Shown piece after piece: positions 3,159 through 39,927 of a stretch of 39,927 nt of DNA (position 1 is the stretch's first letter; every line of letters starts with the position of its first letter). This DNA is from a bacterium. GTDB taxonomy: Bacteria; Myxococcota_A; Bradymonadia; UBA7976; UBA1532. Below the pieces are notes generated by a model. It saw nothing but the letters and a program-made list of their open reading frames with translations, did not search any database and was not told where the DNA came from. Location of the stretch: contig JAUHXC010000011.1 of assembly GCA_030427205.1 (NCBI GenBank), forward strand, positions 236,016-275,942, in the 5' to 3' direction. The position numbers were made by a program, and so were the translations under genes.

Positions 3159-3756
3159 TGACCATCTCCTCGATGGCGTCCCGGCGTCGCGCGACGACAG
3201 CGCCGGTGAGCTTAGGGTCGGGGCGGTGGCCGGCGCAACGTGTCAGGAACGCGTCGACGGTCGGGGCCCGGAAGAGCCAGCGCCCGCGGGGCCCGGCGCG
3301 GCCGTCGGGCACGAGCAGGCCCTTGGCGATCCACGACCGCACGGTGGAGGTCGACCCGGCGTGGGTGTAGGCGACGACGTCCTCGACGGTCATCCAGCGC
3401 GGAGGCTCGGAGGCGGGCATTCCGGGCACCCCGAGCCCGCCGGTTGCCCGGAATGAGGCCATCGGCTGGGGCTGTGCGAGCCCGAGGTGCTCGACGATGC
3501 TCGCCAGCATCGTCTCGGCCCGGTCGAAGGGGCCGACCGGGTCATCGGTTCGGCTACCTGCCGCCCACCACCAGCCGACCTCCCCTTCGTGGATGCGCAC
3601 GGTGGCCGCGTCCGCCCCAGCCCCTGGGCCATCCTCCTTGCCCACCCGCACCGCGTAGCCCCAACGGTCCAGGCTGAGCTGGAGTTGGTGGACGTCGAAT
3701 GCGGCCCCGGTGGTGAGGCCGGTGTCGTGCAGCCGAGCATGGGACGGACGCGCCAT
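2818..3756 (-). CDS. Fusion-type protein: N-terminal module homologous to a repeated module of the giant protein (ends in FRATGGLGVPGM), followed by an excisionase/AlpA-type HTH (MTVEDVVAYTHAGSTSTVRSWIAKGLLVPDG…GRWLFRAPTVDAFL). The 3' end is uncertain: the ORF runs about 340 nt into the integrase gene out of frame.
   Basis: ATG at 3756 with GGAGA 4 nt upstream. The segment GWWWAAGSRTDDPVGPFDRAETMLASIVEHL…FRATGGLGVPGM aligns with GWYWSRAWSGDFDGVGPFDRASAMLASLVERL…FRATGADGVPGM of the giant ORF. The HTH_17/excisionase-like motif follows. No in-frame stop before 2818. Confidence 0.5.
   Translation of the reverse strand: MARPSHARLHDTGLTTGAAFDVHQLQLSLDRWGYAVRVGKEDGPGAGADAATVRIHEGEVGWWWAAGSRTDDPVGPFDRAETMLASIVEHLGLAQPQPMASFRATGGLGVPGMPASEPPRWMTVEDVVAYTHAGSTSTVRSWIAKGLLVPDGRAGPRGRWLFRAPTVDAFLTRCAGHRPDPKLTGAVVARRRDAIEEMVNGEDAKDEDEVCRRVPARERRLVDPGHATRRRRTTESEAAGAAERVVDRRGGASPSSTGRRAGGRAGRGRSAGRRGPAERSPQARSEGGDDYRRRLRTVLGCDEAVAAETEHS
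3418..3455. repeat. 38-bp palindromic element, copy 1 (CATTCCGGGCACC-N12-GGTTGCCCGGAATG), in frame inside gene 2818..3756. On the minus strand it encodes FRATGGLGVPGM.
   Basis: Read directly. Arms are reverse complements, with one mismatch in this copy. Confidence 0.8.
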
Positions 3757-3767
3757 GCTCTCCACGA

Positions 3768-3795
3768 TACGGAGGAGAATCGATACGCGGACAAG
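3768..3795 (-). promoter_or_regulatory. Conserved 28-bp upstream motif, copy 1 (plus strand TACGGAGGAGAATCGATACGCGGACAAG), 12 nt upstream of the ATG of gene 2818..3756. Putative promoter/operator.
   Basis: Same motif at 26419..26446 and 27303..27330. Each copy is upstream of a minus-strand start codon. Confidence 0.45.
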
Positions 3796-3946
3796 CCCTT
3801 AGACCAGCTGGCAGGTCGCGGTTGGTGCTGGTTGCCATTCCGACCCACGGATCAGTCAGGATTGTGAAATCGCCATCGGGACTCCGGTCCGCCATGCTTC
3901 ACCTGAGCAGATTCTGCATCCCACCAGCAGGCACAGTGGAGGGCCT

Positions 3947-4570
3947 ATGGACTTCGACCCAGGGCAATCGGAAGCACAGCGCGGCCGACTCATCGCCGAA
4001 CGGCTTCGCCGACCCGACGTCCAAGAAGTCAGAATCCGCGCTGCTTTCGGCTCGTTTGCAATCCCTGTGGGCCCAGGTGAACCGGTCACAGCAGACGAGC
4101 ACGGTTTGGGCGAGGAGTCGGCGGCCATGGTCTCACTGCTCAACCAGTGCGAGATCACGGTTAAGGCGCTACTCCACCCCAGGAGCTACGAAGACGGTGA
4201 TGGCTTCCGCCCGTGGCGCTCATATGCGGTTGGTCTGCTCGACGCCCTGCAGAACCCGGCCTGGAGAAAGCTCGACGTCGTCTACGATCCCGAGCCGACC
4301 GACACGAACCTCATTGTCTTCGGACAGAGCGAGGCCTGGGTCGGTCTACGTTCATCGAGGAGCCGTCGCTATGAATGGACTCTTCGCAGCCAGGGTCCCG
4401 ATGTGCAGGGCTTGACCGCGGACTTCGATATGGCATTCGAGCGCAGTCTGAACCTCATCGATAGGGCGAGCAGTCGTGAAGTAAATGGGGCGAGCAGCCG
4501 TGGACAGCGGCTGCTCGACGCGCGGGCTGATCTCGTAGGACGGCTCCGCGCTCTGCTTGGAGATGGCTAG
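3947..4570 (+). CDS. Hypothetical protein (207 aa), in a lower-GC patch.
   Basis: GGAGGG RBS 6 nt upstream of the ATG. Coding-like codon periodicity. No recognisable domain. Confidence 0.6.
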   Translation: MDFDPGQSEAQRGRLIAERLRRPDVQEVRIRAAFGSFAIPVGPGEPVTADEHGLGEESAAMVSLLNQCEITVKALLHPRSYEDGDGFRPWRSYAVGLLDALQNPAWRKLDVVYDPEPTDTNLIVFGQSEAWVGLRSSRSRRYEWTLRSQGPDVQGLTADFDMAFERSLNLIDRASSREVNGASSRGQRLLDARADLVGRLRALLGDG

Positions 4571-4604
4571 CGGAACACGGTTGAAGTCCGTCTGGACCGT
4601 ATAG

Positions 4605-4871
4605 CTACTCCTCCATCGATTGATCTGGCAATGGCTCGAACAGCTCCTTCACGTCGATAAGCAGCACGGCGGCCAGCGCGCCTATTGTCCGGACGTACAC
4701 ATCGCGCTCGGGCTCGTTCAGCAGCCGCTGAATCGTGCGCGGCGAGACCCCAGCTCGTCGGGCCAGCTTGGCCGTGGAGATACCGGTCTCCTCGATACGC
4801 ATCGCCAGCCGCTTGCGGACGCGGGCCAGGGCTTCGTCGGCGATGATCTGCGGGTCGGCCATGACCCGCAT
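4605..4871 (-). CDS. XRE-family (Cro/CI-type) HTH transcriptional regulator.
   Basis: …ETGISTAKLARRAGVSPRTIQRLLN… is a typical HTH_XRE signature. Small size (88-100 aa). Divergently oriented from the sigma-like module with a palindromic operator between them. The start could also be at 4862 or 4907. Confidence 0.75.
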   Translation of the reverse strand: MRVMADPQIIADEALARVRKRLAMRIEETGISTAKLARRAGVSPRTIQRLLNEPERDVYVRTIGALAAVLLIDVKELFEPLPDQSMEE

Positions 4872-4914
4872 CGTACGCGCGGCATGATTGGCGCGATATT
4901 CCGCCAAATGTAAC

Positions 4915-4946
4915 CGCCTATCCGGTCATATATGGCCGGATAGGCG
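4915..4946. promoter_or_regulatory. 32-bp near-perfect palindrome CGCCTATCCGGTCATATATGGCCGGATAGGCG. Candidate operator in the divergent promoter region between the XRE regulator and the sigma-like module.
   Basis: 11-bp perfect arms (CGCCTATCCGG / CCGGATAGGCG) around an AT-rich core, read directly. Lies in a 170-bp intergenic region between divergent genes. Confidence 0.55.
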
Positions 4947-5040
4947 TTCACTTCGTTCGCGGTTGTCGGTAACGTGCTCTTGCCGAGGGCCCGAGCTGCC
5001 CGTTCGGGTCCACCGTCGGCGACGACAATTGGAGGACACC

Positions 5041-5478
5041 GTGACGATCGATGGTGGATCGGCGCTCGAACTGCGCCGACGGATAGGAGACGTGTATCTG
5101 GGCGACGAGCCCCCGCCCGGGACGAGTCGGGCGACCTGGTTGACGACGGCGCTGGCCCGCGAGCCCGACAACCTCGAGTTTCACGCGATGGCCCGCGACT
5201 TTCTCGCCGTGATTGTGCTGTACAGGCGCCTCGCTGCCGCGCTGGACGCGGTGGAGGACGCGCCGACCGGGCTGGTGCTGCACGGGCTCCTCGGCCACGC
5301 CACCGCGGAGTTGGTCGGCGCGACCCGGGAGCCTGGATGGCGAGCGGCTGCGCTCGACCTGCTCGACCCCGACGGCAAGACGCAGGCGCCCCTCGACCAC
5401 GACGACGCAGTCCGGCTGTTCGCCTTCGCGCTGGGCCTCGACCCTGACGCGGACGGGCCGTCCGATGCGACCCACTGA
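5041..5478 (+). CDS. Hypothetical protein, partner of the sigma-like gene and paralog of the partial CDS 1..246. Could be a cognate anti-sigma or co-regulator (inference).
   Basis: GTG at 5041 with GGAGG 8 nt upstream. C-terminal 65 aa about 75% identical to 1..246. Its stop overlaps the ATG of the next gene. Confidence 0.6.
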   Translation: MTIDGGSALELRRRIGDVYLGDEPPPGTSRATWLTTALAREPDNLEFHAMARDFLAVIVLYRRLAAALDAVEDAPTGLVLHGLLGHATAELVGATREPGWRAAALDLLDPDGKTQAPLDHDDAVRLFAFALGLDPDADGPSDATH

Positions 5479-6088
5479 CCCCGCAGCCGAGCGAATGCTG
5501 GGGGTCGTGCTTCGGTTGGAGTCCGCGCCCTGGCCGGGCGCGCTGTCGGCTTACGGAGCCAACCTGCTCGCGCTGTCGACCCGGTGTGAGCGGCCAGCGG
5601 CGAAGGCCGAGATCTATCGATGGTTCATGCGCGAGGGCGGCGGGGCGCTCGTATCTCGGCATGAAGAACGCTGCGCTGATCTCCGCGACGCCTTCCACGA
5701 GATGGTCGCCAAGATCCCGTGGATCCTGCTCCACTTCCGGGCGGGCCTCGACGCGGACCGGCGGCCGAACCTCAAGTCGATGCTGGTCAGGTGGATCGGC
5801 TGGCGGGCCAACGGCCTGTACGAGTCGCGGCAGCGGCACGCCTCCCGGCGGGCACCGTATCGGCTCAGTGATCAGCTCGCCCCCGGTGGGCCCGACATCG
5901 CTGCCCAACTCGGTGAAGTCCTCGCCCTCCTCGATGGGGCCGACCCGGTCACCCGCGCCCTGCGCCTCGTCGGCCTCGGCCACACGATCGCCGGTGCGGC
6001 CCGCCTCACGGGCGTCAGCCGCCAGAAGATCTATCGAGCCCGCTCGGCCTTGCAGGCGAAGGTCGAGGACGAGCCCGATCGGGACTGA
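5464..6088 (+). CDS. Sigma-70 region-4-like HTH protein (ECF-sigma-like or LuxR-type), paralog of 236..865.
   Basis: …RALRLVGLGHTIAGAARLTGVSRQKIYRARSALQAKVE is a region-4-type HTH. Collinear homology with 236..865. Translationally coupled to the upstream gene. Confidence 0.65.
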
Positions 6089-6102
6089 TCCAAGCCCCCG
6101 GC

Positions 6103-6957
6103 TCACTCGTCTCCATCAGCCGATTCGTCGAACGCCTCTGGCATCGGCCGGTTCCACGTCTCCAACACGAGATCGCTGACTTTCACCGCGACCGCTCCTG
6201 GGAACGGGCCCTTCGCCTGCCTGATCATCCGAGAGACGCTGCTCCTCGACGTTGGCCACTTCGTGTCCTGCGTGATCTCGGCGATCTTCGGCGCGCCGAG
6301 CCCCTTGCCCCACATGCCGAGGCAGGGGCGCATCGCGATCGTCTCCCGCATGCGGCCGACCTTGGCGAGCCGGCCGTAAGCGTTCTCGGGTTCGGCTGGA
6401 TCCATCGACGCGCTGAGCCGGGGCACGTAGCGGATGAGGTCGGCCCGTGATTTGGCTCGGTTCATCCGCTGAAGTCGAGGCCCTGCCCCTTCACCAGCGA
6501 GGCTGAGCTTCGCCAAGTGTCGCCAAGGCGCGACGAGAGGAGCAGCTTCCGCTTCGAGTGGTGGACGCTCCGCAAGGCGTTCGATGAGTTCCCGCGAGAT
6601 CTCCCGGTACGCACCCGGCCCGTCCTTGTCTACGACCTTGGCGGCCAGCTTCATGGTCCCGCGGGCGATCGCGTCGAGGATCATCACGTCGCAGTGGGTG
6701 AGGTCCGCGATGATCTCGATGCCGCATCGCGTGATCATGTCCTCGGTGATGCCCTGAATCATGCGGGACAGGTCGGTGGTCCCGTAGGTTTTGACCGGAT
6801 GCGGAAGCGGTCGCAGACACTTCGCGCAGATCTTCATCTTCGATCCGTAGCGCAGGTGCGTTTTCTTGCAGATGCGGCAGGACAGCTTTGGATCGAGATC
6901 CTTGCGCCGTTTGAGGTCCCCGCGCTTCTTCTTCGTCTTGCTGTCTGGCGGCTTCAT
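6103..6957 (-). CDS. Hypothetical protein with an N-terminal zinc-ribbon-like Cys cluster (CRICKK…CAKC). Lower GC than the surroundings.
   Basis: 284-aa ORF. CxxC…CxxC near the N-terminus. Last gene of the long minus-strand gene train. Confidence 0.55.
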   Translation of the reverse strand: MKPPDSKTKKKRGDLKRRKDLDPKLSCRICKKTHLRYGSKMKICAKCLRPLPHPVKTYGTTDLSRMIQGITEDMITRCGIEIIADLTHCDVMILDAIARGTMKLAAKVVDKDGPGAYREISRELIERLAERPPLEAEAAPLVAPWRHLAKLSLAGEGAGPRLQRMNRAKSRADLIRYVPRLSASMDPAEPENAYGRLAKVGRMRETIAMRPCLGMWGKGLGAPKIAEITQDTKWPTSRSSVSRMIRQAKGPFPGAVAVKVSDLVLETWNRPMPEAFDESADGDE

Positions 6958-7181
6958 AGGGTAGATCGTAGGGCGGCAGATCGGGCCTTTTCCGCATATT
7001 TTGCAGGCTGTTACGCGATTGACGGCACCCTGACGTCTACGGCGCCCTATGTGCCCGAATAGGATCTACCCTGTGGATCCCTCCTGACGAGACACCGAAC
7101 CCTCGGGTCGAGCCGAAATCAGGGCCTCTTCAGAACTTCGCGTGCACGAACCCGTTCGCGGCCACCGGGCTGTGGGTCCGA

Positions 7182-7964
7182 TCAGGCGATCTTGGCGATG
7201 GTGAGGTAGCTGCGGGCGAGCCCGCCGAGGCTGCCGAGCAGCTCGGTGCCGACGCCGGTGGGGTTGGTGACGAGAACCTTGAGTTGGTGCCCGACGGCGA
7301 GGGTGACGAGGTCGAGAACGTGGCCGCCGTTGCTGCTCTGTGCCGCCTGACTCTTGCTGGTCCAGGTGGCGCCGTTGTCGGTGCTGATCTGGACCTCGAG
7401 CACCATCGGGGTCGAGGCGGTGCTGACCGATGCGTGGATCTGGTAGTCGCCGGCCTCGTCGGCGGGGCAGGTGAAGACGCCGGTCGCGGTGTCGTAGCCG
7501 GCGGCGACGTTCACGTCGGCGACGTCGCAGATCAGATCGGTCGAGTCGTTGTTGTTGATGTTGATCGGCAGCGCCCCGACCGACGCGCGAACCCGCACGG
7601 CCGCGGCGGCGGGCTCACCGGCCGGGCCGGCGGGGCCCTGGCCGCTCGCGGAGTGCCAGACGATGCGGTCGGGCAAGGGCTCCTCGACGAACTCCAGGGT
7701 CACCACGCCGTCGACGACGCCCAGGCTGCACACCTGGAACGTCTGGAGCGGCCGGTTCGACGTCCGGCCGATGACCCGGGTCGAGCCCGGGTGCAGGATC
7801 ACCTCGTCGGCGGGGTCCTCGTTGAACCGGATCTGGGTGATGGGCTGGTCGGCTTCGAGGTGAGCGATCAGGCCCAGGTAGAACTTGCGGGGGCCCGCCT
7901 CCTCCTTCACTTCGGGGTAGCCCATGCGCGAGGTGGCGATGCGGTTGTGCACGTTGGATGGCAT
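7182..7964 (-). CDS. Hypothetical protein with a short collagen-like GPAGPAGEP stretch and a C-terminal jelly-roll-like (C1q/TNF-like or tail-fibre-like) region. Tentative.
   Basis: ATG at 7964 with GGAGA RBS. The composition of the C-terminal 150 aa (…NINNNDSTDL…GATWTSKSQAAQSSNG…) resembles C1q-like domains. Similarity not verifiable here. Confidence 0.5.
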   Translation of the reverse strand: MPSNVHNRIATSRMGYPEVKEEAGPRKFYLGLIAHLEADQPITQIRFNEDPADEVILHPGSTRVIGRTSNRPLQTFQVCSLGVVDGVVTLEFVEEPLPDRIVWHSASGQGPAGPAGEPAAAAVRVRASVGALPININNNDSTDLICDVADVNVAAGYDTATGVFTCPADEAGDYQIHASVSTASTPMVLEVQISTDNGATWTSKSQAAQSSNGGHVLDLVTLAVGHQLKVLVTNPTGVGTELLGSLGGLARSYLTIAKIA

Positions 7965-7981
7965 CGGAATCTCTCCAGGTG

Positions 7982-8950
7982 TCAGACCACCCCGGCGTGA
8001 GCCAGGTGGCGATCGATGCGGCTGGTGACCTTGGTCTGGACCCGGGTCCAGGCTTTGGCGTCGGCGCCGCGGTTGTAGTAGCGGCGGAACCGGTTGGGGC
8101 CGGTGTGCCACAGGCGAACGCCACGGGCGGCGTCGCGGACGGTGCCCCCGCGCTTGCGCACGAGGCGCCAGAGCTGGGCGTAGTAGTCGATGGGGACGGC
8201 GATCTCTTCGGTCGCCGACCAGTCCCACGGCTGCCAATCGGCCGGGATGGGCGGCGCCTTCAAGCCGAGGTTGTCGAGGATGGCCAACTCGCGGCCCGCG
8301 TCTCGGTTCCACTGAAAGACGCCCCACGCAGTGATGAGCGGTGCGTCGCCTCGGGGTGCGTCCACCGGCGTGCAGAGCCGTCGCCGGTTGATCTTGGTGG
8401 TCCTGCAGGCCGCGTTGAAGTTGCGGGCCGGGACCGCGAAGGTCCCCCCTTCGCCCTCGGTCTTGGCCAGATGAACCATCGTCTTGACGAAGGACTCGCC
8501 GAGACCGGTCTGGCGGGAGACGTCGGCGATCGGCGCGAGCGCAGCGCCCGGCCTCGAAGCGTTGCGCACGCGCTCTGCCTTGAAGCCAGCTGGGCGTGCC
8601 TTGAAGCGCAGGCTGTAGATCCGGTTGGTGAGGGCCAACAGGCGCTTCGAGTCGAGCCCATCTACCCGCACGACGCCCTCGGGGCCCGAGGCGATCCCGA
8701 CGAGCGTCGGCAAGCCGGACGGCCGTCGACGCTTGTGCTTCGGGCCGTAGGGCTCGCTGGCATCGGGCGTGTAGCGGATCCGGCCGGGCACGGTCCGGGT
8801 CGGCGAGGTGGGCGGGCTCGGTATGAGCCGCGGTTCTGGCGTGGAAGCAGGACCAGCGACGGCCCGCCCGAGGGCCACAGCCCCCGCAGCGATCCCGGCG
8901 GCGGTCGCGATGACCACCCGTAGCCCATCTCGCCCATTCAGACCGGACAT
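7982..8950 (-). CDS. Secreted or membrane-anchored hypothetical protein (N-terminal hydrophobic segment).
   Basis: ATG at 8950 with GGGGAG RBS. N-terminal LRVVIATAAGIAAGAVALGRAVA. No recognisable catalytic motif. Confidence 0.55.
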   Translation of the reverse strand: MSGLNGRDGLRVVIATAAGIAAGAVALGRAVAGPASTPEPRLIPSPPTSPTRTVPGRIRYTPDASEPYGPKHKRRRPSGLPTLVGIASGPEGVVRVDGLDSKRLLALTNRIYSLRFKARPAGFKAERVRNASRPGAALAPIADVSRQTGLGESFVKTMVHLAKTEGEGGTFAVPARNFNAACRTTKINRRRLCTPVDAPRGDAPLITAWGVFQWNRDAGRELAILDNLGLKAPPIPADWQPWDWSATEEIAVPIDYYAQLWRLVRKRGGTVRDAARGVRLWHTGPNRFRRYYNRGADAKAWTRVQTKVTSRIDRHLAHAGVV

Positions 8951-9294
8951 GGGCTCCCCTGCGGGATCGGCGTGCTCTCCCCCGGCTCGACCCAGGCCAC
9001 CTCCAGCGTGAAGCGGGCCTTCTTCTGCGTCTGAGCCAGAAAGACCAGCCGCTCCCCGGGCAGAGTCACCGGCAGCGCGATCATCTGCGCCGCAGGCGCC
9101 AGACCCGCCTCCCACAGCACGGTCTTGCCCGCCTGCCCCCGCAGTTCGAGCCGCCCGGCCGGTGCCGCGTCGGTGCTCGTCGAGGCCCGCGCCGACCAGT
9201 GGTAGCCGGTCGACGACACCGGGACGACGCCGACCTCGACCCAATGGTCGGCCCCCGGCGCCCCGACCCGGTCCGCGGAGATGTGCGTGCGCAC
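8938..9294 (-). CDS. Small hypothetical protein (118 aa, GTG start).
   Basis: Fits the co-directional gene train with 1-nt spacing to the upstream gene. Weak support otherwise. Confidence 0.35.
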   Translation of the reverse strand: MRTHISADRVGAPGADHWVEVGVVPVSSTGYHWSARASTSTDAAPAGRLELRGQAGKTVLWEAGLAPAAQMIALPVTLPGERLVFLAQTQKKARFTLEVAWVEPGESTPIPQGSPCPV

Positions 9295-9295
9295 G

Positions 9296-9697
9296 TCAGC
9301 ACTCCGGGTCGGCGAAGATGGTCAGCTCGACCGTGTACGGCAGCCGCCCTTCGAGCACCTGCACCACGAAGTCGAACTTCGAGCCCGCCTTGAGCTTCAT
9401 CCCGGTGAAAGCGCACGGGTCGCCCGGCCGCTCGTCGGGCGGCACCAGATGCGAGAGCGGCGGCAGCAACTCCGTGCTCTCGTCGTAGGGCGACCAGTAT
9501 GGGCTGCCATAGCCACCCGTCGACTTGAGCCCGAGCCGACACACCCGCAGCCCGGCCGGGTCGTTGGTGTACGCCCGGACGGTGCGGATGGTCATGTCGA
9601 ACGGCACCGTAAACAGCGCCTTGCCGTCGCCGTTGGCGTCGCTGGCGATCACCAGCGGGTGGGAGACGCGCGGGGGTGGGGTGTACTCGACGGTCAT
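9296..9697 (-). CDS. Hypothetical protein (133 aa).
   Basis: ATG with GGAG upstream. Coding-like composition. No family recognised. Confidence 0.5.
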   Translation of the reverse strand: MTVEYTPPPRVSHPLVIASDANGDGKALFTVPFDMTIRTVRAYTNDPAGLRVCRLGLKSTGGYGSPYWSPYDESTELLPPLSHLVPPDERPGDPCAFTGMKLKAGSKFDFVVQVLEGRLPYTVELTIFADPEC

Positions 9698-9747
9698 GGC
9701 GACAGCTCCGATGCCTTCGACAGACGATCAGCGGTGAACCACCGGGC

Positions 9748-10711: not shown

Positions 10712-11365
10712 TCAGTACAGGTCCTCGTCGTCGTCCAGCTCGATGAGCGCGTCGCCCTCGACTTCGAGTGCGCCGACGGTCATCGCCTCCTCCTCGGTCT
10801 CGCGGTGGGCCTCGGCCAGATTCTTGAGCTTGTCGACCGCCCCGCGGATGTCGTCGTCGATCTGGTGGTCGAGCTGCTCGAGGTCGTCGACGCCCAGCTC
10901 GCCCGGCTTCTTGCGGGTGATCGCGCCCAGGCCCTGCGTCGCCCCGCTGTCGGGCCCGCTCTCCATGAAGTAGATGATCGCCAGGGTCCACGCGGAGACC
11001 CCCGACGCTTCGAGCCCGGCCGCCTCACGGTGCTTGCCGTGGTGGCGCGCGCGGCGGGCGAGCACCCCCGTGATGACGGTGAACGCCACCATCACCATGC
11101 CCCGCGAGGTGGGGCTCAGCTTGGCCCACCACTCGGCGCTGCCTCGACGGGCCATGCCTTCGAGCAGCCCGAGCGCCGCGGCCGAGAGACCCGCGCCGGC
11201 GAGCTTGAAGCCGATGCGGGCGGCCTCGCCCATGTCATTGCCATTGGCGACCACCAGACGGGCGGTCTCCTCCTTCTTCTTCGCCGGCGCCTTGTTCTTG
11301 GGCCGTTCCAACGTGCGCGACATCGCTGTCTCCTCGTCGCTGGGGTTGACGATGGTGGTGAACAT
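10712..11365 (-). CDS. Small membrane protein (2-3 TM segments) with an acidic C-terminal tail.
   Basis: Its ATG at 11365-11363 shares one nucleotide with the stop of the giant gene (TGATG). Hydrophobic segments AARIGFKLAGAGLSAAALGLL, MVMVAFTVITGVLA, AWTLAIIYFM. Confidence 0.6.
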   Translation of the reverse strand: MFTTIVNPSDEETAMSRTLERPKNKAPAKKKEETARLVVANGNDMGEAARIGFKLAGAGLSAAALGLLEGMARRGSAEWWAKLSPTSRGMVMVAFTVITGVLARRARHHGKHREAAGLEASGVSAWTLAIIYFMESGPDSGATQGLGAITRKKPGELGVDDLEQLDHQIDDDIRGAVDKLKNLAEAHRETEEEAMTVGALEVEGDALIELDDDEDLY

Positions 11366-14300
11366 CAGCTCGCGCTCCGGTAGCGATGGCGCACGGTGCC
11401 GATGACGGTGCGGGGCACGCCCGCGGGGACTCTGCGTTCGTTTGCGGCGTAGGCGCCGGTGAGATCTCGGGCGGTGAGGACTGCCGCGACAGCGTTGGTG
11501 CCGTCGGCGGCGATGACGATGCCAGCGTCCTGGACCAGCTCGGTCGCGCGGACATGGACCGCGTCGCCGCCGACCAGCTTGCGGTGGCGGGTCGGGCCCA
11601 TGCCGTTGTTCTCGACCTTGACGATGACCACCAGCGGGATATCGGGCGGCACCTTCTTCTGGAGCGCCTGGGCCGCGCTCATGCGCCGGGTCTGGTCGAG
11701 CCAGACGAGGCGCTGCGCGTGGTCGATGCCGAGCACGAGGTAGCTGCCGATGGGGGTCTGGGGCGGAAGCTGCATACCGTCTCCGTAGGGATCGGGGGCC
11801 ATCGCCCGGCTCTGCGGTCGGCGATGCGATGGGTTCGTGCGGGTGCGCTGCATGCCCGGTCGCAACGGGCGGCCCCACCACCACTTGCTGGTGTCGTCGC
11901 GCAGCGCGTACTTGTGCTCGTCGTTGGCGGCGAGGCGCAGCCAGCGCGCCCAGCCGGCCTGGGTCGGAGGCAGCAACACCGCCCCCTCGGGGGGCTTGCC
12001 GCCGCGCCGATGTATGTAGACCTCGCCGTTGAGGTCGAAGGGGAAGCGGGTCTCGGCGGGGCCGTAGTTGCTGCCGAAGTAGCTCGCCCGGATGCTGGCG
12101 ATCTCGGCCTTGGCGGTGGCCTCGACCCGGGGCCACGCGGTCTCCAGCCATGCGGGTGCCGCGTGGGACCAGCCCATGGCCTGCCAGCCGCGGTAGGGGT
12201 TGGCGATGGTGCTCTTGACCAGCCGCTCGACGCCGTCGGTCCAGTTGTCGGCGACGTCGGCGGGCCGCGTGGGCGAGACGTCGTCGTCCGTCTTGTCGCG
12301 CGCGACGTTGGCGACCTTGTGGCCCTCCCACGAGGCGTCCCCGGCGAGGCGCAGCCAGATCATGCGGTGCGTACCCTGCCAGCCGAACCGGCCGACCTCG
12401 TACCAGTCGTCATCCCAGCGCAGCCACGAGCCGGGGAACAGCGGCGGGGTGCCTTGCCGAGCGAGGATGTCGTGCGCGCCGGCCTTTCGCGCGGCGGCGA
12501 GCAGCCCGGCCCACGGCCAGATGTCGCGGTCGATGCGGGCCACGGCGTCGAACGCGGCGTCGGCGCCGGCCAGCAGCCGCTCGGCGCGCTCGGGGTCGAC
12601 GGCGTCGCGAGCCTCGACGAGCTGGCTCGCGCCCGATTCGAGCAGCTTGATCGCCCGCGCGGCTTCATCGGCGCGGCGCTTGGCCTCGGCAGCCGCCCGC
12701 AGCTTGTCCAGGCGCTTGCGGGTCTCGTCGGGCGTACGGCTGATGAGCAGCAGCACCTCGTCGGGGCCCAGCTCGAGATCTGCTCCCGGGTTGGCGATGG
12801 CGTCCGAGCCCTCCAACAAGGCGCCCATCCAGCCCTGCTTGCCCTGGATGAGGTTGAAGCGCAGCCCGTCCATTGATCGCCGCGAGAAGTAGTAGCGGAT
12901 GGCGACGGTCGAGAGCGTATTTCCCTGCCGTACCGCCCGCCCGTTGCGCTGGTTCAGCGTCGCCGGCTCCCACGGGAGATCGGCGTGGTGGATGGCGCAG
13001 GTGCGCGTCTGAAGGTCGAGGCCCTCGTAGGCGATGCTGTTGGCGATCACCACGTCCAGCTTGCCCTCGTTGAAGCGGTCGGCGATGCGCTGTCGGGCGT
13101 CGCTGCTCTTGGCGAGCTGGCCGTTGAGTACGCCGATGCGGCTCGCCTTCAAGCCACGCTTGACCAGCGTCTCCTTGAGCCATCGGTGCCCGGCGATGGC
13201 TTGTAGGAAGACTATGTGTCCGCAGAAGGTGTTGCCGGCGATGTAATCGGCGATGGCATCGAACTTCGGGCTGTTCGGCCGGTAGCCCTGCGCCGACTTG
13301 TAGTCGAGGCCCCGGTCCATCTCGGCGTGCACGGCTACCAGACCCATGCGCGCCAACAGGCCCAGCACCTTGTTCGACTTGTCACCCCGTCGCATCGCAT
13401 CCAGCTCGGCCTCGATGCGGGTGACGTAGGTCTCGTACTTGTCTTCCTGCGCCTCGTCCATGTCGACCTCGACCAGCTCGGTCGTGGGCTCGGGCACTTC
13501 GAGGCCGATGTCGGGGGGCTGGATGAACTCGCCCCAACGCAGCAGGATCGCCTTCAGCTCGTCGAGGCGCTGGAAGCCGGTCACCGCGGGGCGCTCGCTG
13601 GCCTCCATCGTGGCGTCGATGACGAGCCGCGGTTCGATCGTCAGGAAACGGCTGATGAACGCCTCGGGGTCGTGGATCCCGTGGTCGCGCCACAGCTCGC
13701 CGTTGACGTAGCTCCACAGGTTGTAGAGTTCGAGTGGGCTGTTCTTCGCGGGCGTCGCCGAGAGCAGCACGACGAAGCCGTCGCGGGCGCGGACGTCCCG
13801 GGCCCGGGCGTCCAGATTCCACGCGCGCTTGCTCGCCGATGACTGCCCCATGAACCGCGGGATGCTGCCCTCGCGGTTCTCCGGGCTGTGCAGGCCCTTG
13901 TAGTTCTGCGCTTCGTCGACGATGAGCAGATCGACGCCCAGCTCGGACCAGCGGATGTCATCGGCCTTCCAGCTCGGCGGCAGCTCCATCATCTGCGCCA
14001 GGAAGGCCCGCACGCCCTGCTCGAGCAGCGCCTGCTGCCGCTCGGATGGGTTCGTGCGGTTGCGCGCCGTGCGCTGGGCCAGCCGGACCGACCGCTGAAG
14101 CTCGGTGGCGCCGGCCGCCAGCCGCTCGAACTCGTCGGCGGTGATCCCGGTGCGCATGAACGCTGCGGGGGTGACGAGGGCCAAGTCGTAGAGCCCTGCG
14201 GCGAACCGGCGCCACTTCACCTCGCGGTCGTCCTTGTTGTCCGGCCCGTACTTCAGCCCGCCGTGCCGGCCTGGGGTCGCCTTCTCGCCGATGGTCACTA

Positions 14301-17300
14301 CTGCGTAGTCGGGCAGCGCCTTGTGGATGTCGCGCTGCCACTTCGACACGAGGCTGTTCGGGACCAGGATCACGGGCCGGCGAGTGCCCACGTTCTGTCG
14401 GGCGAGGGCGACCGTCGCGCAGGCGGTGAACGTCTTGCCAACGCCGACCCCGTAGGCCGCGACCATGCCCCGCTGGTCCACCGCGCGCCGGGCGCCCGCG
14501 TTCTGGTGGGGGTGGGGGGTGATCTGGGCGCCCCAGCGGGCGAGACGCAGCGGGTCGCCCGAGTAGCGGCGCTGCACGAACCCGCGGTGCGCTCGGCGAT
14601 ACGCCTCGGCCACGCGGTCGCGAATGTCGGGCCGGGTCGACAGGAACGCCTTGAACCGGCGCTCGAACTCGTCGGCCTTCGCCCGCCGGACCTTGTTGAT
14701 GTCCTCCGACTTGGGCTTCTTCGGCCGGAAGACGTACTCGTCGTGGTTGATGTAGCCCAAGATCAGCCGGATGGACGACGTGTTCGCGAACCGGTCCGTG
14801 ATGTCGTCGTAGCTGTACTTCTCGCCACGAAACTGAACGACGCCGTCCTTGCGGTCGATCGCGACCGGCGTCTTCTCACCACGCCGGAAGGAGCCCAGGA
14901 ACGCGCCGATGACGCCGAGCGGGAGCCACCCGTCCCGCAGGCTGATGCGGTCGGCGATGTCGGCGAAGCTCACGTCGCCGATCGCGTCCTCCAACTCCTT
15001 CCGCTGGCTGTCGGCAACGTGCCGATAGTTGCTGGGCAGGGCTTCGAGGCGATCGAGGCGCGTCCACAGGTTGCCGGACAGGTAGTCGTCGCGCGGCAGC
15101 AGGCGGTTGGCGTCCAGGCGCCAGCCCCTGCGCAGCAGATCGTCGACGTTGGCGACCCGGTCGAGGGGCACGCCGGCCGGGTGCATCGTGAGCAGTTGCC
15201 GGGCGTCGCTCACATCCAGCGCCAACTCGGGGATTCCGACCGGCGCTTCCAGCGTCGCCAGCCGCCGGCCGAAGATCTCGGCGAAGGCGTCGAGGGCGCC
15301 GGCGAGTTCGGCGTGCAGCATCATCCGCCGGGTCGTATCCGATGCCTCATACTGCGCCACCCGCTGCGACAGGACCGCGGCGAGCTGGCCCTCGTCGGGG
15401 CCCTTCGGCGGGGCCGGCGGGGGATCGGGCTCGGTCGGCAGGCACACCGCGCACGACGGATCGGCCACGGGCGCGATCAGGTGGCGCTCGCCGTCGGCGC
15501 GCTCGATGACCGTCGGCGCTGTGCCCGCGCCGAGCAGGAGCCGGCCAGTGCGCGCGCCGTTGAGCGCCATGCGCAGCCGGGGCAACTCGAAGGACCATTG
15601 GCCGCTCGCCGATCCCGGGGCGACCCGCGCGCCGCGGAGGAGGGTGCCGTCGAGCAGGAGCCGCACGCCGTCGACCTCGAGGGCCGCCGGGCTGGTCGTC
15701 ATCTTGCGCAGCCGGTTGAAGAGCGCGCCGAGCGGCGCCGGGTCGACGGTCGCCACCGGATCGGCTGGGCGCAGCAGCTCGGCAGGGTCGGGGTAGTCGA
15801 CATCGAGCGCCCGGCCATCGGGGTCGACCACCCGCATGGGGTCATCCTCGGCGCCGTGGGCGAGTTCGATGAGGTTCTGCCCGTCGGTCGCGAGCACCAG
15901 CCCGCCGCCGACGCGGATGCCACGCAGCACGGGATCATTGGGGTCGGTGAAGAACTTCGCCCGCTCGATGGCCGCCGCCAGATCGGGCGCGACCTGGCGC
16001 TCCATCTCCACGTCGCGCAGCCCGGCCGGCAGCCCTGCCTTGCGCGGCTTGCGCGGCTTCCACGCCCGGCCACTGTCCATCTCCAGGTTCGCGAACCCAG
16101 GCGCGAGCGTCTTCTTCGGCTGCGGCTTCGCCGGGCCCTCGTCGTCGGACTCGATCGAACGGCGCGAGATGATGGGGCGTCCGGCCACTTCGACGAGCTG
16201 CTCGACGTCGCTGAAGCGCATCGGCGCGACCATGTGCCGCTCGCCGTCGGCCCGGTCGAGGACCAGCAGGTGGTTGCCCCACTCGATCCCGCGCTCGGTA
16301 TCGCGCCCGAGCACCCGCACGGTGACCGACCCCTTGGCCTTGGCGAACATCGGCCGGAGGTAGGCCCGATCGAGCTTGGTCAGCAGGTTGGCCCCGCGCG
16401 CCGGCCCGATGTGCCGCTGCAGCCGCTTGTTCGCCGCCGAGCCGGGCTCGACGTAGAGCTGCCCGTCATGCACCCGCCAGATGGGGTCGCTGGTCAGCGC
16501 CTTGTTCAGCAGCGCGTCCCGCAGCGCCTTCACGTCGGCGGTGGCGACGACCGCAGGCTCCATCTCCTCGATCCGCTGCAACAGATCGACGGTCATGTTC
16601 TGGTCGGCGGTCGGCCAGCCCTCGGCCAGCTTGCCCTTGCGATCGAGCCACTGCTGCTCGCCCCGGTGATCCGTCGGGATCTCGACCAGCCGCACCATGC
16701 TGCGCCCGATGGCCCGACCCTGCGTATGCCAGACCGTCGTCAGCAGCGGCGCTGTCTTCTGCGTGCCCGCGAACCGCACCGCCCGGCGCTGCGCGGCGGC
16801 CTTCGACTGCCGCGGCCGGCTCTCGTCGATCGGCGGCATCTTCGGCGCCGGCAGGGCGATCGGCTCCACCGGAGGCAGCAGCCCGCGGTCGTCGCGCTCG
16901 GAGACCCCGAAGCGCACCTCAGCGACCTCGACCCCGTGGCGCCGGGCGTGGCGCTCGAACGCCTCCTGAACGCGCTCGGTGACCATGTGCGGCGCGGGGT
17001 AGGCCTCCCGGACCTCGATGACCCACGGCCCACGGTGGAACCCGGCCAGGACCTGCATCGCCCCGTCGAGGTTGAGCGCCTGCGGCTGGAGTGTCGACGC
17101 ATCGAACAGCGGGATGACGTCGCTCGACCCCGCCCGCCACGCGAATACGCCTCGGCCGGGCGGCACCGTCGGCTCGCCACCCGACTGCACAGGCTCGACC
17201 GGCTGCGCCATCTCGAAGCGCAGCGCCTCCGCAAACCGCTTCACGTCGCCGGGCCCGCCGCCCGTCTTCTCCATATGCGCTGTCGCGACGGCTTGCGCCG

Positions 17301-20300
17301 CCTCCGACGGGTGGATGCCGTCGGCGACCAACTCGGCGAAGACCTCCTGCGGCGTACTCCAGTCGAGCCCGTGCATCGCGCGGCCGAGCAGGCCCGGCGT
17401 GCTGCGCACCACCTCGGCCTCGACCACCGGCGTCGACGCTCGGCTCGGCCGCGCCGGCCACCCCTTCGCTGGCCGGCGGCGGAGCTGAAGCGCGGGCGCG
17501 GCACCACCCCCGACGTCGAGGCTCGCCCCCGGCGCGAGCGCCTGCACCTTGGCGCACAGGTGCCGGTCCTCGGCGTTCGACGCGCAGAAGTCGGCGACCG
17601 AACTCTCCCACGCCATCGTCCCGTCGGGCTCGTAGCCTCGGAGCGCATCCGGGCGATCGTCCACCGGTCGGACCGACCGCGGGGTTTCGCGCAGCACCTT
17701 GCGCCCGGCGTCCGTCAGCCGCAGATGCACGGCCTTCGGCGACACCGCCACAACCCGGAGGAAGCCGGCCTGCTCCAGATCGGGCAGGTGCGCCCGCACC
17801 GGATCGTCGCCGAGCACCATCGCGCCCCACTCGTGCACCGACACTAGATCCGCGAGCGGCGGGCGCTGCATATGGGCCAGTCGGGCACCGAACTGCGGCG
17901 CGCGCACGTCGACCTTACGCGCCTTGCGCCGCCCGCGCTGGGCCTGGATCCGATCGTTCCCGGCGACCACCGCGTCCCGCCCGCGACGCAGCCGGGCGAC
18001 GTAGTCCCACACCATCTCGCGGGTGAGCCCGTCCCGCTCGAACTGCCCGGTCTGCTCGTACCGCTGCGCCTTGCGAATCGTCGCCTTCAAGCCTTCGAGG
18101 GCCTCGCGCAGCAGCTCTCGCCGGACCTTCTTCGTACGCGGGCTGCGCACGATGTCCTCGACCGCCGCTCGCCAACCGTCGGCATCGGTCAGCGGCACCG
18201 CGCCGCCCTGGAACCGCTTGCCCCGGTTGTGCGCCTCGTCGACGTCCCGCATCAGCGCCCGCAGCGTGCGGAACGACGGCGTGGCGATGGCGTCGGCGTA
18301 TGCATCGACGGATGGCATGGGCGTGTCAGCCGGCGGCTCGGCCTCGTCAACGACCCGCGGCGTGAAGTCCGGCAGGCCCGCGTACTCGCCGATGACCTCC
18401 TCACCGCCCCAGCGGCCGGACGGCTTCACTTCGCCGAGGACATGGCTCGGGTGGTCATCGAAGTAGCGCCCGCTGACGAACAGATCGTCCGGCGACGCCT
18501 TTGCGCCCGAACGCGCCCGCAAGAACACGACGTCGAGGGTCAGCCGGGCTCCGGGGAACAGCCCCGACGGCAGCCGGAAGGCCGCGAGCAGATCGGCCCG
18601 CTCGTCGACCCGGCGCCGCAGCTTCCCGTTCGATGATCCCGTCAGGAAGCCGCCGGGCACTAGGAAGGCACCGACACCGCCCGGCCGCAGCAGCGCCATG
18701 CCGCGCAGGATGAAGTACTGGTACGCCGCCTTGACCCGGAACCGGCGATCCTTGTCCTCGGTGATCTGCTCGCCGCGGGGGCCGTAGGGCGGGTTCGAGA
18801 CGATCACGTCGAAGCGGGCGTCGGGGTTCGCCTGGACCCAGCTCTCGAACGAGCCGACGTGCACCGCCGTCGAGGGCGTGGCGGTCTGTCGGAGGATGAG
18901 CGCCGACAGCGGCGCCAGCTCGACCGCGGTCCACTGCCAGTCGGGGAAGCCCGCGACATGCACGAACCGCCCGACGCCCGCCGAGGGTTCGAGGGCCTGG
19001 ATCGCCCCCGGCTTCACCAGCCGTCGAACGGCCGCGGTGATGTCGGCGCAGACCTTCCACGGCGTGTAGTACTCGTGGACCAGCGCCCGCTTGTTCGGCA
19101 GCGGGATGCCCGCCGGCCAGTCGTCGCGCACCTTGTCGATGCTCAGGCCGCCCCAGCCGCTATACTGGCGCATCCGCTGCACCTGGGCCGCGGTCGGCGT
19201 CGTTCCCGATCGCTCCAGCGCGTGTGCGAGCTGCACCGCGAGGATGTTGCCCCGCGTCCGCGCCGCGGGCGTCTCGGGGGCCTCGGGCCACTCGCTCTCG
19301 GCGCCGCCCGACGCCATTCCGGGCAACCCGTCCGATCCGGTTGCCCGGAATGGCGTGTCCGCCGACCCGTTCACCGCTGCCAGGAACCGCCGGGCTTCGG
19401 CCTCCGAGCCGAATACGAACCCGGGCACCGCGCCCCCGCGCCGATAGCGGCTGAAGTAGCCCGATGGCACCGGGCTATCCGGGTCGGCGGCCTGCTTGGC
19501 CAGCACCGTGAGGGCCTTGTACCGCTCGCGCGGCAGGCGCTCGATCAGCCGCACGGTCCAGATGTCGTGCCCGTCGCGGGTATGGCGACCGGCGATCAGC
19601 TCGAACCCCTCGGGCGTCTTTGGGGCCGTGGGGGTCGGGGCAGGCTCTCTCGTCGGCGCCGAGGGCTGTACCGCGACCGGCGCGGGCGGTCGCGGCTTGG
19701 GCTGAGCTGGCTTGGGCGTCTTGGGCGTCTTCGGCGCCTCCGCTGGCCCGCGTACCAGCCGAGGGCGTGGACCGCCGCGCCGCCGGGCCATGCGGAACGC
19801 GCGGTTCAGTACGTCCTCGGCCTTCTCCCGGGTCCCATCGGGCAAGTCCTCGACCAACCGCCGCGCCGTCTCGGCGAAGAAGGCGTCGATCACCTGATCG
19901 TTCGTCGCGCCGCGAGGAGCGACCCAGCTCATGGTCCGGTGCTTGTCGGTCCAGACCTCGAATCCGCTCTCGACCCGCTCGCGCCGGAAGCCCGACGTCA
20001 GCCGGCGCCGCAGCCCGCCGCGATCGAGCCCCCGCTTGCCCTCGCCGCGCGAGATGCGGATGGCGTCGAGCAGCCGCGCCCGCTGATCTTCATCCAGCCG
20101 CAGCCGGTAGCGACGCATCGCTGTGTTGATCGGCTCGACCGCCAGCAGGAACCCGGGGTCGGCCTCGACCGCCTCGACCTGACCAGCGGGGTTCACGTCG
20201 ACGAACTCCACCGGCAGGTGCAGTTCGAGCCCGTCGGGCAACGCGCCGATCGGGTAGACGGCCGTACCGCACACGACCCAGACACCGCGGGTCGGCCGGT

Positions 20301-23300
20301 TGAGCCGGGCCGCAGCCTCGCGGATCATCCACGCGGTGTGACCGGCCTCGGCCACCTCGGCGGGCGGCTCGCCCACGTCGACCCGCAGGGTTTGCTGATC
20401 GCCCTTGGGCATTCCGGGCAACCCGACCTCTCCGGTTGCCCGGAATGCCGGGGTCGCTGCCGGCTGGTCGTAGAGCTCGAGGGCGGCCCGCCGCGCGGCG
20501 GCGAAGCTGCGATGATCGGGGCCGACGATCTTCCAGCGGCCGCCGACCGACTGCTCGACCCGATAGGCGCCACGCTTGCCGCTCTTGCTGAACCGCACGC
20601 GCTTGTCGGGCGACGTGTAGACCGGCGGCTTCGTACCGCTGCGGGTCCACGTCTTCATCGCCGCCTGAACGTCGAAGACCGAGCGGGGTTGCGCCGCCGG
20701 ACCGTCGTTCGCGGTCAGCGCGGCGATCCGGTCGGCCAGCCACTTCTTGCGCTCACCGATGCCCTTGCCGGCGAGCGGCGCGAGCAACGTCAGCCCGAGC
20801 GCCTGCGCCGGCTTGGCCAGCAGCTCGACGTAGGCCCGCGACGCGATGACCTCGACCACGGCGCCCCGCCCAGCGAGCCGCGCGAGCGCGGGGCTCACCT
20901 GCGCGACCCACGCGGCGCGCTGCTCGCCCGTCAGGTCTTGCGCCCGCTTGTCGTACGGCTCGACGGGCTCGTCCGGCCCGACGACGCCGAGCCCGGCCGA
21001 GACGATCGCCCACGGCAAGCCTCGGGCCTCGGCGTACCGACGGCGCAGATTCCACAGCGCCCCGCGGTACAACGCCTGAGCTGCGACCGGCCCGGAGGCG
21101 ACCTTGCTCTTCACGCACCCGACGAGCACAAACGTCGGGTCAGCGGCGGACTCGGCGGCCATTCCGGGCACCCCGTCCGCTCCGGTTGCCCGGAATGCAG
21201 CACCGTCCAGGGGCAGCCGCTCGACAAGGCTCGCCAGCATCGCGCTGGCCCGGTCGAACGGCCCGACCCCGTCGAAGTCACCGGACCACGCGCGGCTCCA
21301 GTACCAGCCGTCGTCCTTGAGGTTGATGGTGACCGTGGTCTCGCCGCCGCCGTTGTGGCACGTCACCACCCGCAGTGTGGCGGTCATCGCATGGAAGACC
21401 GGGCAGCCGTGGTCGCGCAGCCGGTACTTCAGCCAGCGCAGATCGAAGCCCGACCCCTCGTTGGTGGGGGGCTCGAAGAGCGCGGTGACCAGCCGGCCGA
21501 CGGACTGCCCGATCTCCCGATCGGTGCCGGTCTGGCCGTTGTTCTCCAAGGTCCAGGCAGGCTTGCGCTGCCACCAGCGGTCGCTGATGACCTCGGCCTT
21601 AGCCAGTCGGGCGACCACCGGCGCGTCGGCCAGTGGCGAGAGGTCGATGCGGTCGCCCACCTTCGCGACGGCGAGCAGCTTGCGCATCATCCGGTGAGTC
21701 ACGGCGCTGGCGGCCCGGCCAGCGTCATCGATCTCGCCCGTACGGGGGATCGACGCCAGTGGCCCGATCTCGGCCGACGGGGGAGGTTGCCCCGTCGCCT
21801 CGACCGCCGCCCGTCGAGCAGTGGCGAACTTCTCCGGCCCCGCGTGGATGGTCCAGGTCCGGCCGGCGCCGAGTCGCAGCACGTACCACCGCTTGCCCGC
21901 GCGTAGCACCACGGTACCCCCGTCGGGCGCGATGTGGACCTTCGTCCCGTCGCTGGGGTGCACGACCGATCGGAACTCGTAGGCGTTGGCCGCCTTCGGC
22001 GCGGTCTGCCGAGGCCGCAGGGGCACGGTGTTGTCGACATAGGCCGCGTACCACCCCAGGTTCACGAGGTTGACGACCCGGGCGGCGGTCCACCGCTGCC
22101 CGCTCTGGTCGCGGAAGACGGCGCCCTCGAACTGCGCCTGCTCACCCGTCGCGGTCAGCGCCCATCGCGGGCCGTCGGGCGCGGCCACGAACAAGCGTCG
22201 CACCTTGCCGACCTCGCTCAATGTCGAGACCGGGTGCGCGTGGGGTGGGATCGACGGCGCTGGCCCCGGATGCGGCGGTGCGCCGTAGATCTCATCGGGC
22301 ACCGGCGCCGCCGGCTCGTCGACCGCCGGGATGGTCGGCGGCGGGCTCTCGGCCATCACCTCGGCCGCCCGATCCCGCGCGGCGATGTAGAGCTGGACGT
22401 CCGCTGCTGTAGCCATCGGCTGGGCCAACTGCTCGCGGGCGAAGGTGTGCACCGTTCGAGCGGCGTCATGCCGACCTTGCGCCTGCTCCTTCCTGGCGAT
22501 CCGCTCGTCGGCCCACCGGCGACCCTTCGCCGCTCGCACCTGGGCCGCGTCGAGCCAGCGCCACGCCCGCTCTCCGTCGACGGTGGTCGCCTCGAACGGG
22601 ATCGGCATGTCGTGCGTCTCGCGCATCTGCACGGTGCGCTCGACCAGTCGCTTGATCTGAGCTGGCGTCCAGCCGCACCGCTCGTTCAGCGCCGAGACCC
22701 GCACGGTGCCGGCCTCGGCCACCGCGATGAGGAACCGCCGCTGGTCGCCGTCGAGTACGTGGTCGAAGGCCGCCGCCGCCGGCCAGTGGGCGGCCAATCG
22801 CTGCGACGCTGCGGGCCCGACCGCGCGGGCCACCGCGTTCATCGGGATCAGCACGGTGCGCTCACCACGCCGCTTCGGCCGGAACCACGCTCGCCCCGTG
22901 GGCCCGTCGACCCGCCAGGGCCCGTGCCGCTCTCCGCGGCGGTCGACGATGCTCATCAGCCCGTCGTCGTGAACCTCGACGACCTCGAACCGGTTGAGGA
23001 TCTCGGTCACGAACCAGTCGCCGAGCGCCACCGTGAGCGACTCGCTCGTAGCGGTTTCGGCCTCGGCCACCGGCTCGGGCGGCTTCAGCCCCATCCACTC
23101 CCACGTCCGCTCGCCCCGTAGTCGACTCTGCTTCACCGGCAGAGGCATGCCCTTGCGCTTGAGCCCGCGCAGCCGCTTCAGCGCCCGGTCGATCGCCTCG
23201 ACCGACCACCCCAGCCGCTCCGTCAGGTCCGACTCGGTGGCGAAGTTCAGGTCGGCGAAGGCGATCATCAGCCGCCGCAGCTCCGCATCGAGCCAGCCAC

Positions 23301-36992: not shown

Positions 36993-39927
<2,935 letters not shown>

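Follow-up and report, generated by a model that had tools for sequence, protein, structure and literature searches.

A 38-bp palindrome with invariant arms recurs in frame in linker-coding DNA of a giant polyvalent-type gene and an excisionase-like gene of one bacterial mobile element

The DNA considered here is a stretch of 39,927 nucleotides (contig JAUHXC010000011.1 of assembly GCA_030427205.1, positions 236,016 to 275,942), hereafter the window, from a bacterium of the Bradymonadia. It carries a mobile element with a tyrosine integrase gene, an excisionase-like gene (the xis-like gene) and a gene for a giant multidomain protein of the polyvalent type. A quasi-palindrome of 38 bp occurs four times in this element, three times in the giant open reading frame (ORF) and a fourth time in the xis-like ORF. 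On the evidence of sequence, its arms are shown to be held at the nucleotide level, with strict Watson-Crick symmetry maintained against the codon bias of the genes. We tentatively take the palindrome for a lineage-specific DNA element that would be read, as duplex or as cruciform, by a symmetric protein, the encoded peptide being a tolerated passenger. Judged from sequence comparison, it is a documented oddity under a real nucleotide-level constraint, limited to one small lineage, and its function is putative.

When the window was searched with the pattern CATTCCGGGCAAC-N12-GTTGCCCGGAATG, with up to three mismatches permitted, exactly four matches were found, each with no mismatch or one. They are the cores listed in Table 1, and all of them had been located in a preliminary description of this DNA; 100 dinucleotide-preserving shuffles of the window gave no match. 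At up to two mismatches, the 13-mer matched the window only at the eight arms of the palindromes. In a position-by-position scan, the four copies scored 31-32 of the 32 arm positions, the background in the window and related loci reached at most 22 of 32, and nothing fell between. This gap means that decayed copies and solitary arms are absent. Every copy lies on the minus strand and is read in the same frame as F-R-A-T-G-x-x-G-(L/V)-P-G-M, so that the reading first given for the peptide holds in 4/4 copies. The DNA flanks of the four copies are unrelated to one another, and the boundaries of the copies are sharp.

The copies lie close to domain boundaries. The next recognisable unit begins 10 residues on from giant copy 1 (DUF6884), 7 residues on from the xis copy (a helix-turn-helix, HTH, domain) and 10 residues on from giant copy 3 (a conserved WPxAPE block leading into the methylase). 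Copy 3 itself is situated in a hypervariable linker that runs from a 'GRHTRDGH...GAVPGFVF' module to the methylase region. A homologous module of about 60 residues had been described ahead of every copy; such a module does precede the xis copy and giant copy 1, whereas giant copies 2 and 3 are preceded by domains unrelated to it. The two paralogues of this module (module 1) share 51% identity over 71 residues, and their homology stops at the palindrome, downstream of which the sequences are unrelated. Single-sequence AlphaFold models had mean pLDDT values of 39 and 38.5, too poor for use, and agree weakly in placing the motifs in coil.

Folding and direct pairing defined the unit on the coding strand as CATTCCGGGCAACCGG-N6-CGGGTTGCCCGGAATG, with 16-nt arms in which positions 15/24 form a single, invariant G.G mismatch, and with a variable spacer of 6 nt. 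The palindrome reported earlier thus stands, but with dimensions other than the arms of 13-14 bp and centre of 10-12 bp first given. Across the copies, the arms are identical at 31-32 of 32 positions, while the spacers (CGGGCT, ATCGGA, AGAGGT and AGCGGA) are different in all four, at most positions. In the xis copy and giant copy 1, position 27 is G rather than T, giving a GTG codon in the right arm (Val for Leu) and an uncompensated A.G mismatch within the stem. Two copies extend outwards, to 18 perfect pairs in giant copy 3 and to 19-nt arms (95% complementary) in giant copy 2. From the coordinates, codon position 3 pairs with position 2, and position 1 with position 1. Any requirement for complementarity will therefore freeze the encoded peptide as well, and DNA and peptide appear co-conserved for this reason.

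Codon usage separates the two levels. Among the 9565 codons of the window genes, GCA accounts for 4.9% of Ala, GGA for 7.2% of Gly and TTG for 8.8% of Leu, in agreement with the rarity claimed for these arm codons before, and A occupies only 4.8% of third positions. Given the peptide, the probability of the observed arm codons is about 1e-6 per copy. The codon before Phe is TCA, CCA, GCA or GCA: the residue varies (S/P/A/A), while the C and A, which pair with the TG of the ATG, are fixed. Over the four copies, 60/60 stem pairs are Watson-Crick and none is G.U, and 12 third positions retain an A that G could replace synonymously, with wobble pairing preserved in RNA and with the bias strongly in favour of the change. 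The joint probability for the 12 retained A's is about 6e-12, an equilibrium figure that takes the copies as independent and overstates that independence, because the copies share ancestry. Together, the pairing and the retained A's therefore argue for a constraint on DNA complementarity or exact sequence, in preference to one limited to the peptide or to the stability of an mRNA stem. In the only independent pairwise test, between the xis copy and giant copy 1, the codons of identical residues agreed in 9/9 cases within the arms and in 17/25 within the adjacent module (P of about 0.03). Selection on the nucleotides beyond the peptide, as proposed in the preliminary description, is borne out by the rare codons, by the NCA codon under a variable residue, by the absence of G.U pairs and by the invariance of the arms against differing spacers and flanks; no homologue with a freely coded peptide was found, and the flanks are not identical.

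Related loci were reached by exact-protein look-ups. Two independent Logan assemblies, L007 and L008 (94% nucleotide identity), extend to giant copy 1, where the palindrome is identical but for its last base (ATG to ATA, Met to Ile). Of the comparisons suggested at the outset, the one for rearrangements between strains could be made with L007, the sole comparable relative, which is colinear with the window through copy 1; the one for synonymous change gave 0 changes in 13 codons against about 1.35 expected (L007/L008), a divergence too small to test conservation. Two other loci, L012 (ENA, 87% nucleotide identity) and L016, end before the motif region. The syntenic relatives L013 (ENA; protein P0031) and L014 (NCBI GCA_020632735.1; protein P0121), with 46-64% protein identity in aligned blocks, contain neither the palindrome nor the peptide nor a comparable hairpin repeat at their loci. 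The linker at the junction that corresponds to copy 3 is hypervariable, with lengths of 21, 31 and 40 residues, and FRATG...PGM is present in the window only, while the entire region bearing copies 1 and 2 is missing from P0031 and P0121. Relative to these two proteins, the giant protein of the window has specific blocks at residues 83-548, 730-1510 and 1942-2337, the edges of which do not lie at palindromes. By alignment, such blocks without counterpart in relatives show rapid gain and loss of modules in the giant protein. Module 3 is distantly homologous to an Acinetobacter plasmid 'PLxRFG domain-containing protein', in which the motif is absent, and the motif is also missing upstream of DUF6884 in the closest homologue of that domain. 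Since the peptide is missing from the orthologues and from this distant homologue, it is not needed for protein function.

Wider searches found no further members. A degenerate DNA pattern, TTYMGNGCNACNGG-N7-GGNNTNCCNGGNATG, which covers all codings of FRATGxxGxPGM and also matches the palindrome in any context, had 0 matches in IMG/VR, 1 in the GTDB representative genomes (596 Gb) and 4 in the JGI metagenomes. All five were rejected as chance matches, since they lack the palindrome and either are out of frame or belong to unrelated genes (one is an in-frame histidine-kinase motif). A relaxed arm pattern had a single match in IMG/VR, in a P-loop gene, also put down to chance. A profile of module 1 plus the motif, run against 5.8 billion proteins, gave nothing at E<=10. 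Because the genome, metagenome, virus and protein searches gave no true match, the element family is, as sampled here, very narrow, consisting of the window strain and a few metagenomic relatives.

Complementary arms of fixed sequence, a free spacer of constant length and a dispensable peptide lead us to place a reading at the level of DNA first, with some reserve. In this reading, a 38-bp quasi-palindromic element would have been copied into linker-coding DNA at four places of one integrative element, and would act as DNA, either as duplex or as an extruded cruciform or hairpin. A symmetric, dimeric protein would read it, and the gene for this protein presumably belongs to the element; the integrase (by proximity alone), the Xis-like HTH protein, the Cro-like HTH protein and the giant protein with its winged-helix-like N-terminal modules are candidates. 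The 16-6-16 geometry would fit a recombinase-type core site or a similar dimer-binding site, and the peptide, a Gly/Pro-rich linker of 12-13 residues, would simply be tolerated by the proteins. The finding of four copies against zero expected by chance supports this reading, as do the arms that are identical in the xis gene and giant copy 1 despite the divergence of the adjoining module.

Several observations weigh on the other side. Family scans of the other ORFs of the element gave no matches and no recognisable reader protein. The intergenic, promoter and element-end DNA of the window, where operators or att sites would be expected, holds no copies or half-sites of the palindrome. Fully invariant half-sites of 16 bp are stricter than most operator families, and the invariant G.G mismatch, which corresponds to two Gly codons, hints together with the constant frame at some constraint on the peptide. 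The pairwise test of the xis and giant copies reached only the P value given above, L007 and L008 are too similar for conservation to be tested, and the copying may be recent.

Recent copying is central to the alternative that survives best, although we consider it unlikely. The Rickettsia palindromic elements (RPEs), which Ogata et al. are said to have described in 2000, are reportedly palindromic repeats that lie in frame inside genes and are translated as a tolerated extra peptide. RPEs are 100-150 bp long, are present in dozens of copies throughout the genome, including non-coding DNA, and decay over time. The present palindrome is like them in lying in frame within ORFs of which homologues without the insert exist, but it is 38 bp long, its arms are invariant, and its four copies, none of them decayed, are in one mobile element. 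A selfish or neutral mini-insertion of this type would be a short, functionless palindrome recently copied to places where an in-frame insertion of 12 residues is harmless, by some copying mechanism or by short-patch gene conversion. Such an insertion would agree with the restriction to one lineage (absence from L013 and L014, and no true match in 596 Gb of genomes, the JGI metagenomes and IMG/VR), with sharp boundaries and the lack of decayed copies, with codons atypical for the host and with linkers that vary in length (21, 31 and 40 residues at junction 3). However, there are four copies only, in two genes, and zero in intergenic DNA, which is the cheapest target for insertion, and recent copying leaves the combination of invariant arms with four different spacers unexplained. 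Moreover, one copy is older than the split from a relative at 6% nucleotide divergence, and the xis copy and giant copy 1 share the GTG variant as well as a module whose two paralogues have since fallen to 51% amino acid identity.

Somewhat more doubtful are two readings that place the signal in the gene products. In the first, the palindrome would form a hairpin with a stem of 14-18 bp in both the giant mRNA (13 kb) and the mRNA of the xis-like gene, and serve for ribosome pausing, as a block to exonucleases or as a mark for processing. The predicted stems are very stable (-30.6 to -43.2 kcal/mol for 58-nt segments), the folding z-scores of three copies are -6.5, -6.2 and -3.7, and each copy is within a transcribed coding region, directly after a domain. 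What tells against a plain mRNA hairpin, as put forward in the preliminary description, is that not one of the 60 pairs is G.U and that the twelve synonymous, wobble-compatible A-to-G changes are never seen, stable as the stems are. Furthermore, the stems are identical instead of covarying, two copies have an uncompensated A.G mismatch, the remaining z-score is only -1.6, and the terminal pair is lost in L007. An Rfam family is lacking too: no family reached the gathering threshold in the window, in which sub-threshold matches to generic hairpins were the only ones. An intrinsic terminator was rejected, since a scan of 18800-21700 found no terminator-like (or promoter-like) site and there is no U-tract. 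The idea that the terminal ATG is an internal start codon is contradicted by the ATA of L007.

The second of these readings, to which we give the same standing, is that FRATGxxG(L/V)PGM is selected as a cleavage site of a polyprotein or as a docking peptide, and that the palindromy is kept secondarily, for example through template-switch correction of a quasi-palindrome. Consistent with this, the frame is the same in all copies, two Gly codons are kept despite breaking the palindrome, and the sites part functional units (module from DUF6884, module from methylase-helicase, module from HTH). A transglutaminase-fold (papain-like) gene is located in the same cluster, and the polyvalent proteins of phages and conjugative elements have been proposed to be processed into units (PMC5512222). 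The protein of the window resembles these in being a giant multidomain protein (methylase, SNF2 helicase and many small modules) with a module content that varies between relatives, but the searched text of PMC5512222 describes no repeated nucleotide element at the linkers. Nevertheless, selection on the peptide leaves unexplained both the invariance of the codons and the NCA codon under a variable residue. L013 and L014 keep the Transglut_core gene, yet their orthologues P0031 and P0121 are without the motif at the same junction, which speaks against the conserved cleavage site suggested originally. The motif is likewise missing from the Acinetobacter homologue of module 3 and from every protein in the profile search of 5.8 billion, its Met is replaced by Ile in L007, and domain scans of the giant protein found no metallopeptidase domain.

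A quite improbable variant of the DNA-level reading concerns recombination. The core sites of tyrosine recombinases (loxP, FRT and dif) have inverted arms round a short asymmetric spacer of 6-8 bp, and the sfx sites of the R64 shufflon and gix of phage Mu are recombination sites inside coding sequence at which the frame is preserved. The palindrome is like the former in its 16-6-16 arrangement of inverted arms and spacer, with a tyrosine integrase gene adjacent to the xis-like gene. It differs in its arms, which at 16 bp are longer, and in its four unlike spacers, whereas partner sites share their spacer; the four sites should therefore not recombine with one another. In addition, one ORF holds all the segments in the same orientation, rearrangement was seen in no relative, and the element ends have no half-sites. 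Cassettes of the shufflon or integron kind, as envisaged at first, thus find little support, given block edges that do not lie at palindromes, four different spacers and a comparable relative that is colinear. The variant would instead be one of heterospecific sites, with identical arms and different 6-bp spacers, that allow in-frame swaps of domain cassettes between co-resident related elements. The differing spacers would prevent deletions within one molecule, making this a natural, if equally improbable, analogue of recombinase-mediated cassette exchange, and it would explain why the homology between the xis and giant genes stops exactly at the palindrome. A link to the att site was rejected: there are no half-sites near the integrase or the element ends, and the repeats linking its two ends are uninformative.

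Chance or an assembly artefact can be set aside, with 0 matches in 100 shuffles and copy 1 present in two independent Logan assemblies.

Other known systems also failed to accommodate the palindrome. Integron attC sites are 57-141 nt long and have outer R''/R' boxes (RYYYAAC/GTTRRRY), L boxes and an IntI integrase. An attC site was rejected here, since the unit is 38 nt, CAAC/GTTG adjoin the spacer and not the base of the stem, and the integrase is a generic Phage_integrase. Iterons of the lambda ori in the linker-coding part of gene O, the dispersed centromere sites of N15 and parS sites inside genes are likewise symmetric sites tolerated in ORFs, the lambda sites in linker-coding DNA and those of N15 as copies dispersed over one element. 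They have readers (O, SopB and ParB), however, and are clustered or shorter, whereas no recognisable Rep or Par protein is present here. A CRISPR-like repeat was rejected on anatomy. Repetitive extragenic palindromes and the mosaic elements that they form (REP/BIME) are extragenic and have one end marked by a conserved GTAG or CGTC tag (PMC3733652). The palindrome shares with them the character of a repeated, G+C-rich, imperfect palindrome of 20-40 bp. In contrast to these high-copy repeats, which are associated with RAYT (REP-associated tyrosine transposase) genes, it is present in four copies in a 40-kb window, all inside ORFs and in frame, and without a conserved GTAG/CGTC tag (CGTC occurs only after giant copy 3); no match to a Y1 (RAYT-like) transposase was found among the window ORFs scanned. 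In-frame palindromic repeats in genes, such as the RPEs, and recombination or binding sites inside ORFs are already known. A short, perfectly conserved, dispersed palindrome in the linkers of polyvalent and excisionase-like genes fits none of the families tested.

If a protein does read the arms as DNA, a nucleic-acid signal would be superimposed on the linker-coding sequence of a giant anti-host 'polyvalent' protein, and it might offer a handle on the gain and loss of modules in such proteins. If the palindrome is merely a tolerated insertion, it is a curiosity limited to one small lineage. The element is also a natural example of how a palindrome in one frame locks synonymous sites, by pairing third with second positions, and so mimics conservation of a peptide.

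Table 1. Copies of the palindrome in the window and the genes, modules and domains associated with them
Feature	Position	Strand	Remarks
Palindrome, xis copy	3418-3455	-	Encodes (S)FRATGGLGVPGM; 7 residues ahead of the HTH_17 match
Palindrome, giant copy 1	21160-21197	-	Encodes (A)FRATGADGVPGM; 10 residues ahead of DUF6884
Palindrome, giant copy 2	20408-20449 (core 20410-20447)	-	Encodes (A)FRATGEVGLPGM; preceded by an unrelated small module
Palindrome, giant copy 3	19311-19356 (core 19315-19352)	-	Perfect 18-bp arms; encodes (P)FRATGSDGLPGM
Giant polyvalent-type protein gene	11365-24177	-	4270 residues from ATG 24177
Module 1, giant gene	21198-21351	-	Paralogue of 3456-3618
DUF6884 of giant protein	20734-21129	-	Pfam match
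N6 methylase/Eco57I of giant protein	about 18514-18900	-	Pfam match
SNF2-type helicase of giant protein	about 12871-14511	-	Pfam match
xis-like gene	3160-3765	-	N-terminal module paralogous to giant module 1, palindrome, HTH_17/excisionase-like domain
Module 1 paralogue, xis-like gene	3456-3618	-	Homologous to giant 21198-21351
Tyrosine integrase gene	1875-3158	-	260 bp downstream of the xis-gene palindrome; generic Phage_integrase match

The giant protein combines unrelated domains (DUF6884, N6 methylase/Eco57I and SNF2 helicase) in one polypeptide, in the same element as the integrase. Its length, first given as 4269 residues, was corrected to the value in Table 1; the ORF from the first GTG (11365-24402) has 4345 codons, and the ATG is, by comparison with L007, most likely the start. 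A scan of the protein against NCBIfam found no PLxRFG family, and protein searches with residues 960-1720 returned DUF6884 matches only. Gene calling splits the giant gene of L013 (3404-12164) into two overlapping ORFs of 1944 and 989 residues, which may reflect a frameshift. In L014 (2898-9467), the called product has 2189 residues against 4270 in the window; as its sequence ends within the conserved helicase block, this protein may be truncated.

The copy outside the giant gene had been assigned to an excisionase-HTH gene beside the integrase, and it does lie in an ORF with an HTH_17/excisionase-like domain directly upstream of the tyrosine integrase. The xis-like protein has no homologue among the 5.8 billion proteins, and the ORF itself is missing from that collection. 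Its frame is free of stops down to 2818 (2818-3765, minus strand), about 340 nt into the integrase ORF, which starts at 3158 in a different frame, and the GC3 signal changes frame near 3240. The overlap could be real, or due to a frameshift or a sequencing indel.

Upstream of the giant gene is the transglutaminase-core (papain-fold) gene (25902-26408, minus strand), which is conserved in all related elements (L012, L013 and L014). Its product is a candidate processing protease or effector of the element family. A direct repeat of about 35 nt with the core GAATCGA[T/G]ACGCGGAC is found at 3768-3802, 26419-26453 and 27303-27337, and on the minus strand it directly precedes the xis-like gene, the transglutaminase-like gene and a gene for 261 residues. 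It is probably a common promoter, operator or leader of the element; an exact search for its core found no match in the related loci.

Two further palindromes were observed in the window. The first, a near-perfect one of 42 bp (GTAACCGCCTATCCGGTCATA|TATGGCCGGATAGGCGTTCAC, 4910-4951), is located between a divergent gene for a Cro/C1-type HTH protein (4605-4907, minus strand) and the ORF 4888-5478 (plus strand), and is likely to be the operator of the switch region of the element. The second, of 28 bp (ACGGCCCAGCGTTG|CAGCGCTGGGCCGT, 1635-1662), is between the ORF 1022-1627 (plus strand) and the 3' end of the integrase gene, and may serve as a terminator in both directions or belong to an attachment site. 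A direct repeat of 210 nt with 80% identity connects 24-233 with 5250-5459, and the ORF 4888-5478 has a paralogue in the gene cut off at the left end of the window. The 210-nt repeat suggests a second related element, or that the element continues to the left of the window.

Between the gene for 261 residues and the first PI-PLC gene, where the element has its right edge, three tandem repeats of 48 nt (27414-27579) overlap a small ORF of high GC3 (27391-27621, plus strand). The host flank beyond contains inverted PI-PLC-C1 paralogues at 27778-28854 (plus strand) and 34199-35257 (minus strand), with an inverted repeat of 158 nt that is 70% complementary, as well as a protein with an FGE-sulfatase domain and an AcrB-type RND pump (36989-39868). 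The genes of this flank point to a high-GC host of the Gram-negative type.

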